A stretch of 64,000 bases of DNA from a bacterium. Its GTDB lineage: Bacteria > 4484-113. Below, piece by piece: positions 9,033-14,469 of this stretch; within the stretch, counting starts at the first letter, position 1; each line of letters begins with the position of its first letter. Made by a program: the position numbers and the translations under genes. The DNA lies in the NCBI GenBank assembly GCA_021163765.1, contig JAGGTK010000072.1, forward strand, positions 6,072 to 70,071, read 5' to 3'. The notes below the pieces were generated by a model. That model had not been told where the DNA came from, did not search any database, and saw only the letters and a program-made list of their open reading frames with translations.

Positions 9033-10131
9033 CTTCACCTGCCGGTTCGTATTCGCGCATATCCCGATAGAGCGCGTCGCGCACAACTGGTTTCAGCCCG
9101 GCGCCCCTAATAATACCAGCAAGCTCGCTAATGGTCACCCCTTTGGGCGCGCTTGCCCCTGCCGCATGATAGATAAGCTCACGCCCCACCGTGCCGTCCA
9201 TATCGTCCGCGCCCCAGAGAAGCATCACCTGCGCCAGCTTTAGCCCAAACTCCACCCAGTAGGCCTTGACGTGCGGGAAATTATGGAGCGCGATGCGCGA
9301 CGCAGCCAGATGGCGCAGATCCTCCACGCCGGTGGTGAACTCGCCACCCAGCCGGTTGCCCACCGGATGGTAAGCCAGAGGTATGAACGCCTGGAACCCT
9401 CCCGTCTCCGCCTGCAGGTCGTAAAGCTGGAGCAGATGCGCCGCCTTCTGCTCTGGCGTCTCAATATGACCATAAAGCATCGTCGCGTTCGTGGGTATCC
9501 CCAGCTCGTGTGCTGTTCGGTGCACCGAAAGCCATTCGCCTCCCGATATCTTGTCCGGGCAAATCCGCGAACGCACATCTTCCGCAAACACCTCCGCTCC
9601 TCCGCCCGGCATCGCGTCCAGTCCCGCTTTTTTCAGGTCAATGAGCGTGTCGCGCACGCTCATACCTGATAGCTCAGCCATCCACTCAAGCTCCACCGCA
9701 GTGAACGCCTTGAGCTGCACCTCCGGGAAGGCTTCCCGCAGCGCCGTGAGAATCCCCCGGAAGTATCCGTAATCCGCCATCTCGCGCGGCGGGATCGCCC
9801 CGACAATGTGGAATTCGCGCAGGCCCGCTACACCGTCAGTCTTCAGGCTTTCCACAATCTCATCCGGCTGGAGAAAGTAAGCATTGTCGTCCCCGGCGTC
9901 CGCGCTGAACGAGCAGAACAGGCAGCGGTTCCGGCAGACGTTCGTGTAATTTATATGCCGGTTCGCCACCACGTACGTGTTGTCGCCATGCAGCTTCGTG
10001 CGGACTTCGTGCGCCAGCCCGCCCAGCCAGTGGAGGTCGGCGTCAGCGAGCAGGAATGCGACTTCCTCCCGCGTCAGCCGCTCTTCGGAAAGGGCTTTTC
10101 GCTCGATTGCAGATTGAACGGAGTCCCGCAC
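9016..10131 (-). CDS. mqnE: Radical SAM enzyme of the futalosine pathway, MqnE-like (aminofutalosine synthase)
   Basis: 371 aa. NRHINYTNVCRNRCLFCSF cluster motif. REFHIVGAIPP resembles the MqnE HIVGG pattern as I recall it. Same operon as mqnA and mqnC. Confidence 0.65.
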   Translation of the reverse strand: MRDSVQSAIERKALSEERLTREEVAFLLADADLHWLGGLAHEVRTKLHGDNTYVVANRHINYTNVCRNRCLFCSFSADAGDDNAYFLQPDEIVESLKTDGVAGLREFHIVGAIPPREMADYGYFRGILTALREAFPEVQLKAFTAVELEWMAELSGMSVRDTLIDLKKAGLDAMPGGGAEVFAEDVRSRICPDKISGGEWLSVHRTAHELGIPTNATMLYGHIETPEQKAAHLLQLYDLQAETGGFQAFIPLAYHPVGNRLGGEFTTGVEDLRHLAASRIALHNFPHVKAYWVEFGLKLAQVMLLWGADDMDGTVGRELIYHAAGASAPKGVTISELAGIIRGAGLKPVVRDALYRDMREYEPAGEDAQEV

Positions 10132-10238
10132 CTGTCACTTATTCTATGCGACTTACACTCCCTCAACAAGCTTTATCCCCCGGCCATATTCGCTTCCGCT
10201 TATCTGCTATAATTGAGCTTCAGTCAGGAGGGACAACT

Positions 10239-11363
10239 ATGAAACTCACCATCTCCCAGGAAAAGTTGAGCCAGGCGCTCAACCTTGTCAGCAAGGCTGT
10301 CTCCAGCCGCACGCTGAACCTGGTTCTCGCACACATCCGGTTCCAGGTGACGAAGAAGAGCCTGACGCTCACCGGGTCGGACGGCGATTTCACGATCGAA
10401 CACACGGTCGACACCAAGGGAGAGCGTGAAGGCGCGCTGCTCGTGCCCGCACGGCTCTTCGTCGACCTTATCACGAGGCTGCCCAAGAAGGATATTACGC
10501 TGGAACGCCAGGACGGGATGCTAAAGATCACCAGCGGCTTCTCGGACTACTCCATCAACATCCTGCCCGACGAGAACTTCCCCAGCCTTCCGCTGTTTGA
10601 GGAAGGCAAGCTGGCGCAGCTTCCAGCCGGGCAGTTAAGAAGCGCCCTGGGGCGAACCACGTTCAGCGCGCTTAAAGACCCCAGCGGGACAACGAGCCAC
10701 TATACGCACGGCGTGCTGCTCAACTTCCACGAAGACAACCTCGACATCGTGGCCACAGACGGCCACCGCCTGGCGCTGGAGCGGATGGACAATCCCGCGC
10801 CGGAGATTAAGGACCGCAGCCTGCTGGTTCCCACAACCATCACCGAGGAGCTCAGGCGAGCCCTGCCTGACGAAGAAGACAAAACCGTAGAAATCTACTT
10901 CCTGAGCAACCAGGTGTTCTTCAAGTTTGACAACAGCGTCTTCGGCGGCTCGCTCTTTGATATAAAGTACCCTGATTACCTGAAGGTGGTACCCAAAGAA
11001 ACCAAATCCATCGCCAACGTAAACCGCAGCGCGCTGCGGGAGGCGCTTCAGCGCGTCCTGATTGTGTTCAAGGTAAAGGAGCAGAATCCGGTCGTCCGGC
11101 TGGAAACCAGCGGTGACAGCCTGATTATTTCAAGCGAGTCCCAGGATGTCGGCAAGGGCGTCGAGGAAATGCCGTTCACCCAGGGCTCGCCCTTCGCGGA
11201 CATGCGCATCGCTCTCAACCCCGCTTACCTGGCTGATGTCCTCGCGGTGGTGGACTCGGACACCGTTGACCTCCACTGGACGAGCGAAGTCAACCCGCTG
11301 AAGCTGGAACTTCCAGAGAAGCCCGGTTACACCTATATTGTGATGCCCATACGAATGGACTAG
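10239..11363 (+). CDS. dnaN: DNA polymerase III beta sliding clamp
   Basis: ATG 10239 is preceded by AGGAGGGA. MKLTISQEKLSQALNLVSKAVSSRT...LTGSDGD, 374 aa with the three-domain clamp length. The track ORF from 10056 is an upstream extension. Confidence 0.9.
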   Translation: MKLTISQEKLSQALNLVSKAVSSRTLNLVLAHIRFQVTKKSLTLTGSDGDFTIEHTVDTKGEREGALLVPARLFVDLITRLPKKDITLERQDGMLKITSGFSDYSINILPDENFPSLPLFEEGKLAQLPAGQLRSALGRTTFSALKDPSGTTSHYTHGVLLNFHEDNLDIVATDGHRLALERMDNPAPEIKDRSLLVPTTITEELRRALPDEEDKTVEIYFLSNQVFFKFDNSVFGGSLFDIKYPDYLKVVPKETKSIANVNRSALREALQRVLIVFKVKEQNPVVRLETSGDSLIISSESQDVGKGVEEMPFTQGSPFADMRIALNPAYLADVLAVVDSDTVDLHWTSEVNPLKLELPEKPGYTYIVMPIRMD

Positions 11364-11387
11364 ACACAGGCACATCTGCCCGGAGGG

Positions 11388-11855
11388 TTGGGCTCTGCCG
11401 GTAAAACCGAATTGCTGGTTCTTACTAGAAAACCTGGCGAACGTGTCTTAATCGGTCCCTCTATCAAGATGGAGTTTGTAGGCGTAGACGCGAAACACCG
11501 TGCCCGCCTGGGATTCTCCTCCATCCGGCACCTTAAACTGGTCTCTCCGGACATTTCGCTTGATTGCGATATGCCCTCAGGAAGCCCCGAAGCGCCGGTG
11601 AAACGCGACGTCACTCTCGCGGTCAACCAGAAGGTCATTGTGAACGGCGTGGTGGAGATTACGGTTGTCGCAGTGAAAGGCGAACAGGTGCGCGTCGGCC
11701 TGGAAGCCCCCGACGAAATCCACATCTTCCGCGAGGAAGTGCACGCCGAGATCCTTCAGGAGAGCATTCAGGTGGCCCAGAAGGAAAGCGAGCTCACCGG
11801 TGATGAGCTCCCACTCCCTTCCCTGGACCTTGAAGACGAGCCGCCCGCAGAGTAG
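11388..11855 (+). CDS. Tandem-domain CsrA/RsmA-like RNA-binding protein (two CsrA folds in one chain)
   Basis: Residues ~9-52, LLVLTRKPGERVLIGPSIKMEFVGVDAKHRARLGF, align to CsrA beta1-beta4. Residues ~75-122, VTLAVNQKVIVNGVVEITVVAVKGEQVRVGLEAPDEIHIFREEVHAEI, align to a full second CsrA. Start is uncertain: TTG 11388 or in-frame TTG 11412. Confidence 0.7.
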   Translation: MGSAGKTELLVLTRKPGERVLIGPSIKMEFVGVDAKHRARLGFSSIRHLKLVSPDISLDCDMPSGSPEAPVKRDVTLAVNQKVIVNGVVEITVVAVKGEQVRVGLEAPDEIHIFREEVHAEILQESIQVAQKESELTGDELPLPSLDLEDEPPAE

Positions 11856-11866
11856 CGCTCCCGAAT

Positions 11867-12463
11867 CTACCCAATCGCACCGAGCAAGCCCGGCAGCCCG
11901 CACTCCTTGAGCAGGCGGTCCAGCAGGTTCAGCGGCATTCCAACAACGTTGAAGTAATCGCCGCTTATCCCCTGCACCAGAACGCCGCCGACTCCCTGTA
12001 TCGCGTAAGAGCCAGCCTTGTCCATAACCTGGGCTTTCCCAATGTATATGTCCTCTTCCGCCGGCGTCAGCGAGCCAAACGTTACCTCGGTGCATTCCGC
12101 ATCACAGCGGCACTCGCTGCGGTAATGCACCGCAAGTCCCGTGACCACAAGATGCGTGCAGTCGTAAAGCTTGTGCAATGTGGCGCGGGCATCGTCCAGG
12201 CTGGCAGGCTTACCATAGATGCGCCCGTCGGCGTGCACAATCGTATCCGCGGAGATGACCACGACTTCGGGATGTAACCGCGCATAGCCCTCGCCCTTGC
12301 TGCGCGCGGCGTCGCACGCAAATCGAACCGCACCGTCTCTGTCAACCGGCTGAGAGTAACCAGGCGCGAAATCCGTCTCCGGGTCAATCGCCCTGAAGTT
12401 AAGCCCGATGCTTCGCAGAACCTCGCGGCGGCGCGGCGACCGTGATGCAAGTACTACTTCCAT
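11867..12463 (-). CDS. maf: Maf-like nucleoside triphosphate pyrophosphatase (septum formation protein)
   Basis: ATG 12463 gives MEVVLASRSPRRREVLRSIGLNF. The C-terminal YAIQG...GDYFNVVGMPL motif is typical of Maf. Confidence 0.85.
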   Translation of the reverse strand: MEVVLASRSPRRREVLRSIGLNFRAIDPETDFAPGYSQPVDRDGAVRFACDAARSKGEGYARLHPEVVVISADTIVHADGRIYGKPASLDDARATLHKLYDCTHLVVTGLAVHYRSECRCDAECTEVTFGSLTPAEEDIYIGKAQVMDKAGSYAIQGVGGVLVQGISGDYFNVVGMPLNLLDRLLKECGLPGLLGAIG

Positions 12464-12516
12464 AACTGCTATTATATGGGCTGGGCCGTCACAGTGCCCT
12501 CGACGAACGGTCACCG

Positions 12517-14469
12517 ATGAAACCGCAGGAACATTACGATTCCATCGTTATCGGCGCGGGTCACGCCGGATGCGAAGCCGCGCACGCCTGCGCCCGCCTG
12601 GGGCTGTCCACACTGCTGATAACCCTAAGGCTGGACACGGTCGCGCGCATGAGCTGCAATCCCAGCATCGGCGGTCCCGCCAAAGGTCACCTGACACGCG
12701 AGATAGATGCCATGGGCGGGGTGATGGGCGAAGTCATAGACCGCTCTTACATCAATTTGCGGTTGCTCAACACAGGGAAAGGCCCCGCCGTGCAGGCGCT
12801 CCGCGCACAGGCTGACCGGGCGCTTTACTCGCAGGTTATGCTCAGCCTGCTGCAAAACACTCCGAATCTGGCTCTGCTTGAGGGCGAAGTGGGCGAAATC
12901 CTCACCGAGCCTACGACCGATCCGCCGGGAGTGCGCGTGAAAGGCGTGCGGCTCACGGACGGCCGCGAGCTCTTCGCCCCCCGCTGCATCATCGCACCGG
13001 GAACGTTCCTTGCCGCAAAGCTGATGATAAGCGATGAAATCTGGGAAGGCGGGCGCTGGGGCGAGCCGGCGAGCAACGCTCTTTCCGCGAGCCTGCGCAA
13101 GCTGGGATTCCCGCTGGGGCGCCTTAAAACCGGCACCAGCCCCCGCCTGCACCGCGACAGCCTGGACTATACCGCGCTTTCGGTGCAGGTTTCAGAATGG
13201 CGGCACGACGCCTTCCGCTGCTACAGCGAGAGCGAAATTCCGCCGATGCTCCTTCCCTGCTGGCAGACCCGCACCGACGAGCGCACCGTGCGCTACATCG
13301 GCGATAACACTTCACTCTCGGCGCTTTACTCCGGGCACATAACCGGCGCCGGCCCCCGCTACTGCCCGTCCATCGAGGACAAAGTGCGCCGCTTCCCGGA
13401 CAACCTCTCGCATCCCGTATTCCTCGAACCCGACGGGCTGACGACGATGGAGGTTTACGTGCAGGGCCTGACCACCAGCCTGCCGGTTGAGGTGCAGCAG
13501 GGCTTCCTGAGCCGCACAAAGGGCCTCGAGCACGCGCGCATCCTGCGCCCCGGCTACGCCGTTGAATACGACTACCAGAATCCTGTCGAGCTGCACCCGC
13601 ACCTGGAAACCAAGCGCGTCGCGGGGCTCTACTTCGCGGGGCAGGTTAACGGCACAACGGGTTACGAAGAAGCCGGCGCGCAGGGGCTGGTGGCAGGCGC
13701 AAACGCCGCGCTGTCGCTGCTGGGACGTGACTTTCTGCCGCTCGCCCGCGACAATTCCTATACCGGCGTATTAATCGACAATCTGACCACGCTCGGCACA
13801 GAAGAGCCTTTCCGCATGTTCACCGCGTCCTGCGAATACCGCCTGCTGCTCCGCAGTGACAACGCCGCGCTGCGGTTGGGGGAAATGGCATACGACTGCG
13901 GGCTACTGCCCGAAAGCAAATTCGCCGTTCTGCGCGAGCTGAAGCGCCGCGTGCAGCTCTTCACGTCGGAGCTTGCAGCCGCGCGAACAGATGGTTGCGC
14001 CGAATCGCACGGGCTGGATTTGCCGCCGGGCTTTAAGGTACTCGATCTGGCGAAACGTCCTGAGGTCGACGAAAAGCAGTTCGCGGATTGCGCCCAAAGA
14101 GCGATTACCGGCAGCAACCAGGGCGTCAAGGAGAATAATATCCTCAGCGAAACCGCCCTGCGGCAGGTCTATATCGGCACAAAATACGCGGGCTACATAA
14201 AGCGGCAACAGGAAGAGGCGGCCCGGCTGCGCAAGTACGAGCGCATCAGGATACCGCTTGGGTTCGACTACGGCAGCGCGACTGGCGTCTCGTCAGAGGC
14301 GCGGGAGAAACTTGCGCTTGTGCAGCCAAAGACTCTGGGGCAGGCAACGCGCATTCCCGGCATCCGTCCCGCCGACATCGCCGCGCTAGCTATGGCGTTG
14401 CGGCGCCCAAAGCCCGCCGCTGAGGCGCGGTCTGCTAGAATAAGCACGTCCAGTCGGCGCAACCAATAG
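12517..14469 (+). CDS. mnmG: tRNA uridine 5-carboxymethylaminomethyl modification enzyme MnmG (GidA)
   Basis: 650 aa. FAD motif [16 protein letters not shown], with [25 protein letters not shown] and [15 protein letters not shown]. Confidence 0.95.

Follow-up and report, generated by a model that had tools for sequence, protein, structure and literature searches.

The window, a 64,000-nucleotide stretch of contig JAGGTK010000072.1 in assembly GCA_021163765.1, carries on its + strand a csrA gene whose product contains two CsrA-like halves in one chain. Our reading is that this product, a single-chain CsrA of 147 amino acids (aa), probably folds as an intramolecular sandwich with a single GGA-contacting face. 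Because one face keeps the GGA-contacting residues, the protein is most likely a monovalent translational repressor. In the arrangement that we propose, a helix-less CsrA copy (beta1 to beta5) would be joined by a structured linker of 16-19 residues to a complete CsrA copy that ends in a helix and an acidic tail. The kept face would be formed by beta1 of the N-half (L2, L4, T5, R6, and K7) together with beta4', beta5', and the helix of the C-half (R31, V40, V42, R44, E45, and E46). On the opposite face, R44, E45, and E46 are absent from every part of the family; R6 and R7 are missing as well in the window's family, the only one to have lost the arginine and lysine of C-half beta1. One molecule would then clamp one GGA hairpin, typically at a Shine-Dalgarno site, and would be unable to bridge two sites. 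Binding of GGA hairpins and translational repression are themselves suggested by the residues retained on that face.

Two diverged CsrA halves in one chain

Residues are numbered from the TTG at 11412, the first codon of the 147-aa protein, unless the 155-aa frame is named. An earlier note, made from the letters of this DNA, had described two CsrA-like segments in the open reading frame, and the profile searches agreed with it. The whole product matched the Pfam CsrA family (PF02599, cut-off 27 bits) at 73.7 bits in two stretches, and each half also exceeded the cut-off when scanned alone. The N-half (residues 10-48 of the 155-aa frame) covered profile positions 2-39 at 31 bits (E = 2.6e-7), and the C-half (residues 76-122 of the 155-aa frame) covered positions 5-51 at 47.7 bits (E = 1.6e-12). 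The first copy is therefore without the end of the domain, namely the beta5 motif and the helix, and the second is essentially complete.

The N-terminal half (residues 1-46; 11412-11549, + strand) was delimited by Pfam, AlphaFold2, conservation, and substitution rates, and comprises beta1 through beta5 without the helix. The note had stated that this segment keeps beta1 and loses the beta5 motif, which is what we found. Its beta1 reads MLVLTRK (within LVLTRKPGE, with L2, L4, T5, R6, and K7; R6 is encoded at 11427-11429), and the equivalents of R44, E45, and E46 are Ser, Pro, and Asp (LKLVSPD), the R44 equivalent being Ser45 at 11544-11546. A linker (residues 47-62; 11550-11597, + strand) follows, which AlphaFold2 predicted to be structured, with an extra strand at residues 50-54 and a predicted local distance difference test score (pLDDT) of about 88-95. 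Counted from N-half position 44 to C-half position 2, it spans 19 residues, and the family range is 11-20.

The C-terminal half (residues 63-126; 11598-11789, + strand) is a full CsrA copy by Pfam, alignment with Protein Data Bank (PDB) entries, Foldseek, conservation, and substitution rates. The reciprocal claim of the note, that this segment keeps the beta5 motif and loses both beta1 arginines, likewise held. Aligned with E. coli CsrA (1Y00), its beta1' (VTLAV) is degenerate, with R6 replaced by Leu and R7 by Ala. Strands beta3' to beta5' and the helix are intact (VAVKGEQVRVGLEAPDEIHIFREEVHAEILQE), and the segment IHIFREEV keeps the equivalents of V40, V42, R44, E45, and E46; position 38 is occupied by Asp101. 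In the PDB sequence search, which aligned the C-half to 1Y00, 2BTI, and 5Z38_F, residues 68-120 aligned with residues 5-57 of 1Y00 and placed Arg107 (11730-11732) at R44. The chain closes with a disordered acidic tail (residues 127-147; 11790-11852, + strand; pLDDT about 50 or lower) that ends in LEDEPPAE. This ending (EDEPPAE or EDEPPPE) is conserved within the genus. The last 25 aa, which begin 16 residues past R107, carry a net charge of -8 and are near the most acidic of the 57 tails in the family alignment.

Predicted fold

Structure prediction, which the note had proposed as a check, returned a result in line with an interleaved CsrA fold. AlphaFold2 was run on monomers only, with an alignment of 57 tandem-CsrA family members as input. 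Five strands were predicted in each half: residues 2-6, 11-14, 18-25, 31-37, and 41-45 (beta1 to beta5) in the N-half, where the helix is absent, and residues 63-69, 74-77, 81-89, 92-98, and 105-107 (beta1' to beta5') in the C-half, which are followed by a single helix at residues 108-126. The model is one compact body with pLDDT above 90 for residues 1-100. The predicted template modelling (pTM) score was 0.68 over all 147 aa, about 40 of which are disordered, and 0.78 over residues 1-122. Such a score is beyond the reach of two independent 50-residue units, and the halves are therefore placed confidently against each other.

When the model was compared with the PDB by Foldseek, the confident matches were solely CsrA, RsmA, and RsmE chains (1VPZ, 2BTI, chains F, H, and L of 5Z38, and 2JPP; probability 0.97-1.00). 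The C-half superposed on these chains over about 51 columns with a target-normalized TM score of 0.80-0.87 and a root mean square deviation (rmsd) of 0.7-1.3 A. Foldseek aligned the C-half only and gave no whole-protein match, the PDB chains being single CsrA protomers. The matched chains have an open, strand-swapped conformation that occurs only within dimers. A partner is therefore required for the C-half, and the model offers no other than the N-half. The two halves are thus predicted to interdigitate within one chain as a CsrA beta-sandwich.

Conservation and selection on the two faces

Conservation was assessed on the N- and C-halves of 57 family members aligned with 25 canonical CsrAs and E. 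coli CsrA. In beta1 of the N-half, L2, T5, R6, and K7 were present in all 57 members and L4 in 54. In beta4 and beta5 of the C-half, R31, A36, P37, and R44 were likewise present in 57/57, E46 in 55/57, and H, Y, or F at position 43 in 53/57. Arginine at position 44 of the N-half was found in none of the 57, the residue being Pro in 51, Ser in 5, and Ala in 1. Position 45 there was Gly in 51/57 and position 46 Asn or Asp in 50/57; Glu was not among the residues tabulated at position 46 (N35, D15, R3, H1, and M1). In beta1 of the C-half, R6 was kept in 51/57 and K7 in 47/57. Leucine replaced R6 in 6/57, including the window protein and its closest relatives (VTLAVNQK), and sister family f2 has (T/S)RKVDDSV at this place.

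The whole-protein alignment of the 57 members gave the same picture. The invariant columns of N-half beta1/beta2 were M1, L2, V3, T5, R6, K7, P8, E10, and G15, and those of C-half beta3 to beta5 were V86, G90, R94, G96, A99, P100, and R107; no column was invariant in N-half beta4/beta5 or in C-half beta1.

The ratio of nonsynonymous to synonymous substitution rates (dN/dS) was estimated from four loci of the genus, over short regions. Overall, dN/dS within the genus was 0.10-0.25, with dS of 0.7-1.5. The lowest values, 0-0.06, were found in N-half beta1/beta2 (residues 2-15), and the C-half from beta3 to the helix (79-118) had 0.04-0.19. Values were 0.07-0.33 in N-half beta3 to beta5 (16-46), 0.13-0.73 in the linker (47-62), and 0.22-0.69 in C-half beta1/beta2 (63-78). 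From conservation and dN/dS together, the composite face of N-half beta1 and C-half beta4', beta5', and helix is therefore the constrained one. On the reciprocal face, R44 was lost a single time, when the family arose, and the beta1 partner decayed later in the window lineage. The statement of the note that exactly one composite site is intact, in an asymmetric pseudo-dimer, is supported by the fold prediction, by conservation, by dN/dS, and by the layout of the engineered protein Re-CsrA, described below.

Distribution and loss of the flagellar partners

The note had also suggested a search for homologues, and the fusion proved to be clade-wide. A word-indexed search of 5.8 billion proteins with the single protein as query returned 10 close relatives. 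With the family profile as query, the same search returned about 85 clusters of tandem length (111-229 aa), which were at most named 'carbon storage regulator'. Across the 24 species genomes of the small candidate phylum to which GTDB assigns the window assembly, a tandem CsrA was detected with the family profile in about 20, one match each, reaching the deepest families (f3 and f4). The window assembly (G000), a 1.9-Mb metagenome-assembled genome (MAG) that is 78.6% complete, has the tandem gene as its only CsrA match.

FliW (PF02623) and flagellin (PF00669) were found in the same 15 of the 24 phylum genomes, and in family f3 fliW directly adjoins the tandem csrA. In these flagellated relatives, the tandem protein is the only CsrA detected, alongside FliW and flagellin. 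Their single helix and tail would permit one FliW per molecule, which would fix a stoichiometry of 1:1:1 for Hag, FliW, and CsrA. We also observed that the flagellated relatives (G002-G023; for example G021:C21:39268 and G016:C1:1118643-1125522) each encode 2-7 giant flagellins, whose open frames are about 880-1140 aa long and in several cases lie in clusters.

The window genus differs. The note had remarked that no fliW or flagellar genes lie nearby, which is true and can be widened to the whole of the three genomes of the genus (G000, G004, and G005), which are incomplete MAGs (79, 88, and 91% complete) and were examined for three markers. FliW and FlhA had no match in any of the three. Flagellin had no above-threshold match in them; the sole hit, at 22.8 bits, was a flagellin-like fragment in G000 (G000:C4:63540-63767). 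It is interrupted by two in-frame TAG stop codons and may be what is left of a flagellin gene that was lost. In the flagellum-less window genus, csrA has presumably been redirected to non-flagellar targets.

Three genomes from the family's other non-flagellated genera (G001, G006, and G008) have no csrA, and one non-flagellated sister genus has a shortened form of 111-114 aa with no helix (L014 in G007; P0073, P0074, and P0083). Among the non-flagellated genera of the family, only the window genus keeps a full-length csrA under purifying selection. The shortened form stops (...VRISRDNTGD) right after R44. Several metagenomes preserve it, so that it may be a still smaller version with a function rather than a pseudogene.

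N55 of CsrA is needed for FliW binding in Bacillus subtilis. Position 55 is Asn in 49/57 family members and Ser or Gly in the window genus (Ser118 in the window protein). As a marker of FliW dependence, N55 holds within the order and fails in family f3, which is without N55 despite the adjoining fliW; it is therefore a weak criterion and no more than suggestive.

The acidic tail invites a bolder proposal, to which we give little chance of being right. By analogy with Hfq, whose acidic tip autoregulates its RNA-binding rim, the single face might be gated by the protein's own tail (...LEDEPPAE) as a tethered RNA mimic. The gene would be co-transcribed with dnaN and would then encode a self-contained regulator in which the tail replaces FliW and no sponge small RNA is needed. 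If true, the acidic tail would substitute for the lost antagonist.

Alternative explanations

Several observations weigh against the reading that we propose. Position 38 is Arg in 25/25 canonical CsrAs and in 50/57 C-halves, and it is Asp in the window genus, which also has a strongly acidic tail; with Asp38 and this tail, the affinity or specificity of the retained face may differ. Beta5 of the N-half is well conserved (LTLMPGN in most members and LKLVSPD in the window genus), and structural needs or a newly gained function, rather than decay, may lie behind this. The protein falls just short of the NCBIfam CsrA equivalog cut-offs (72.6 bits where 73 are required, and 69 where 70.1 are required), and pairwise BLASTP of the N-half against the C-half gave no alignment, their homology being visible through profiles only. 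Finally, the interleaving and the geometry of the retained face are modelled, and rest on pTM, pLDDT, rmsd, and the precedent of Re-CsrA; the predictions covered monomers only and leave room for swapping between chains.

The conservation of N-half beta5 is the starting point for a reading in which the second face has been repurposed, for a protein partner or a non-GGA RNA, and the protein is an asymmetric bifunctional adaptor. L42 is found at this place in 56/57 members, M43 in 50/57, P44 in 51/57, and G45 in 51/57; most members also keep the (T/S)RKVDDSV motif in C-half beta1 (R in 51/57 and K in 47/57), and the second face of the window protein still has the basic residues R32, R39, K42, K64, and R65. 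In the window's own family, however, the C-half beta1 motif is replaced and is the fastest evolving part (dN/dS up to 0.69), which argues for relaxed constraint, and the MPGN or SPD motif lies where the chain turns into the linker, so that a structural role explains its conservation. We regard repurposing as unlikely. A slightly smaller chance is given to pairing of the N-half with the C-half of a second chain, in a head-to-tail swapped dimer or a daisy chain, by which at least two faces and bivalency would be restored. The CsrA fold is obligately domain-swapped, which makes pairing between chains sterically conceivable, and the predictions covered monomers only. However, Re-CsrA, whose linker is shorter, behaves like a monomer (~12.5 kDa), and the form that it takes in the crystal is an intramolecular dimer; the natural linkers, of 11-20 residues, are predicted to be structured; and the monomer model is confident (pTM 0.78).

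It could also be supposed that csrA in a genus without a flagellum is a functionless, decaying relic of a lost FliW-flagellin circuit. The absence of FliW, flagellin, and FlhA from the genus, the loss of csrA (G001, G006, and G008) or its truncation (G007, P0073, P0074, and P0083) in other non-flagellated genera, and the replacement of R38 and N55 in the window genus would all fit. However, the gene is intact in all three genomes that represent the genus and in some 10 relatives from metagenomes, its dN/dS of 0.10-0.25 falls to near zero on the RNA-face elements at a dS of 0.7-1.5, and both its position after dnaN and its acidic C-terminal motif are conserved, which makes a relic highly improbable. 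Unusual length alone speaks for an assembly or frameshift artefact that joined two adjacent csrA genes, an outcome that the note had named as a possible refutation. Across independent assemblies, one of them a closed 4.1-Mb genome, more than 80 protein clusters show the same architecture in one uninterrupted frame, and in the relatives the N-half never has its own helix or stop codon; an artefact of this kind is ruled out for practical purposes.

Gene start and locus

The open frame reported in the note (11388-11855, + strand, 155 codons counted from the first TTG) is present, but the first TTG is not the likely start. The homologous M-L-V-L-T-R-K is the start in every relative, with ATG, GTG, or TTG as the codon; in locus L003 the codon that matches TTG 11388 is CTG; and the eight extra N-terminal residues that a start at 11388 would add are not conserved in a more distant congener. 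A start at 11388 was rejected on the evidence of the starts of the relatives and of the CTG in L003. The start of csrA is thus likely TTG 11412 (MLVLTRKPGE...), and the tandem single-chain coding sequence, supported by the open reading frame list, the relatives' starts, and Pfam CsrA matches on both halves, runs from 11412 to 11855 (+ strand; 147 aa and a TAG stop).

The conserved upstream neighbour is dnaN, encoding the beta clamp of DNA polymerase III (10239-11363, + strand). Downstream lies the convergent maf (11867-12514, - strand), and mnmG (12517-14469, + strand) is next after it. All three were identified by Pfam and synteny, and the order dnaN, csrA, maf (convergent), mnmG is kept in the genus (loci L003-L006). 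The spacer between dnaN and csrA (11364-11411, + strand, 48 nucleotides), characterized from its sequence and a leader comparison, contains GGAGGG about 24 nucleotides upstream of the csrA start. This element is limited to close relatives; other genera have Shine-Dalgarno-like AGGGA or AGGA adjoining the start. Folding of the leader across relatives gave no conserved hairpin, and an Rfam scan of 9800-12800 with E up to 1 gave no match. Because a promoter and terminator scan found no promoter-like or terminator-like site on the + strand between dnaN and csrA, the two genes are probably co-transcribed.

We also observed that csrA is in frame with dnaN (11361-11414): the dnaN TAG is followed by exactly 16 sense codons and then by the csrA start. 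This in-frame gap of 16 codons is common to all four loci of the genus (the window, L003, L010, and L011), and the diverged L011 has it although its spacer sequence is otherwise unrelated. Read-through of the TAG would yield a DnaN-CsrA fusion; the conserved spacing may equally be coincidence.

Tandem CsrAs in wider protein sets and their meaning

When 1.84 billion representative proteins were scanned in full with HMMER, 5 representatives of the window's tandem family were returned at E < 1e-30, together with many further CsrA-like proteins (105-320 aa) that matched in two stretches. In a rough motif count of 89 such proteins, a census that is crude and biased by the query profile, 21 had two beta1 and two beta5 motifs and 31 had one of each. 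The one-of-each proteins often had beta1 at residue 2 and beta5 near residue 100-130, like the window protein. By this census, tandem CsrAs therefore recur, in two-faced as well as one-faced forms.

Some tandem CsrAs of the f2 type are extended at the C-terminus by a further domain. Most often this is a CPxCG...CPxCG zinc ribbon (PF13248/PF13240; P0033-P0037, P0042, P0044, P0050, and P0053), and single proteins have an HMA domain (P0041) or a biotinyl/lipoyl-like domain (P0047). CsrA fused to further modules appears to be undescribed. In P0156, a protein of 3946 aa, residues 939-1063 match positions 2-122 of the tandem-CsrA profile, which looks like a CsrA-like tandem inside a giant protein. 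Automatic annotation may leave the window product unnamed, given the missed NCBIfam cut-offs; the f2 orthologue P0013 passes them.

No natural tandem, fused, or single-chain CsrA came up in literature searches, which returned engineered constructs only. A 2026 survey of more than 20,000 CsrA homologues contained neither 'tandem' nor 'duplicat', and used 'fused' for reporter constructs only. CsrA is among the best-studied bacterial post-transcriptional regulators, and bridging by the two-faced dimer is central to models of repression and of titration by sponge RNAs. One-faced CsrAs have so far been laboratory constructs only (the R44A heterodimer and Re-CsrA). If our reading is true, a natural one-faced CsrA that is phylum-wide and present as the sole copy would show that a monovalent CsrA is enough for a working regulon, and would put a 1:1 reagent at hand for studies of structure and stoichiometry. 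The phylum is also a natural experiment on the fate of CsrA after loss of its circuit, with flagellated members that have FliW, non-flagellated members that lost or truncated csrA, and the window genus, which kept it. Tandem CsrAs being frequent in metagenomic protein sets, the value of the finding lies in the variant and its evolutionary context and not in a new principle.

Comparison with known systems

The face of CsrA is formed by the parallel beta1 and beta5 of opposite subunits, in which L4 and R44 are critical; R44A abolishes binding and regulation (review PMC7652899). Measured against the homodimers of CsrA, RsmA, and RsmE, the C-half of the window protein is 38-41% identical to 1VPZ, 2BTI, and 5Z38 and 33% identical to RsmE (2JPP). 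By AlphaFold2 and Foldseek, the C-half has the five strands and C-terminal helix of the family, and the N-half has the strands and no helix. Like canonical CsrA, the retained face holds L2, L4, T5, R6, and K7 together with V40, V42, R44, E45, and E46. Unlike the canonical homodimer of two identical chains of 60-75 aa, the window protein is one chain of 147 aa with two diverged halves, one helix instead of two, and one intact face instead of two; R38 is also replaced by Asp in the window genus. In place of two equivalent L4/R6/R44 faces, there is one complete face (L4, R6, and K7 of the N-half with R107 of the C-half), and the other has Ser45 for R44 and Leu and Ala for R6 and R7. RsmN/RsmF of Pseudomonas aeruginosa (4KJI, 4K59) is a further natural case in which the CsrA fold is rearranged and the beta1/beta5 RNA face retained. 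However, it is still a homodimer with two faces, its helix is moved to an internal position, and its alignment to the model was poor (rmsd 8-12 A).

The partner switch of FliW, CsrA, and flagellin was reportedly worked out in Bacillus subtilis and Geobacillus (PDB 5DMB) by Mukherjee in 2011 and 2016. Hag, FliW, and CsrA have a 1:1:1 stoichiometry in B. subtilis. FliW binds the C-terminal extension of CsrA (PMC7652899), and one FliW per CsrA dimer suffices in B. subtilis (Oshiro 2019, PMC6529632). Similarly, relatives in the phylum combine FliW, flagellin, and tandem CsrA, and N55 is kept in 49/57 members. The window genus is unlike this system in being without FliW, flagellin, and FlhA and in having Ser at position 55, and at most one FliW could bind the window protein.

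A CsrA with one functional face, as predicted for the window protein, has been made as a heterodimer with one R44A face. As cited in the review, this heterodimer bound RNA, did not bridge two sites, and incompletely repressed the dual-site glgC (Mercante et al. 2009, via PMC7652899). It was a laboratory mixture of two chains, whereas the window protein is natural, conserved, covalent, and the sole CsrA detected.

The closest counterpart in layout is Re-CsrA, which consists of E. coli CsrA 1-44 without the helix, a 10-residue linker (GGGGSGGGGS), and full-length CsrA (Ye et al. 2018, PDB 5Z38, PMC5864733). It is a monomeric intramolecular dimer that binds RNA and has one complete ligand face. 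The 5Z38 crystal shows the antagonist CesT bound to beta1 from the truncated half and to beta4, beta5, and the helix from the full half, a position that overlaps the RNA site (PMC5864733). The window protein has the same layout of a helix-less half, a linker of at least 10 residues, and a full half with a helix, and its predicted single face is likewise made of first-half beta1 and second-half beta4, beta5, and helix. Re-CsrA was engineered from halves identical in sequence, and its truncated half still ends with R44. In contrast, the natural halves are too diverged for BLASTP, the linker is longer and predicted to be structured, and the second face is without its key residues. Since Re-CsrA has the same order of parts and the natural linker, at 19 residues (11-20 in the family), is at least as long, the intramolecular fold is sterically proven for this design.

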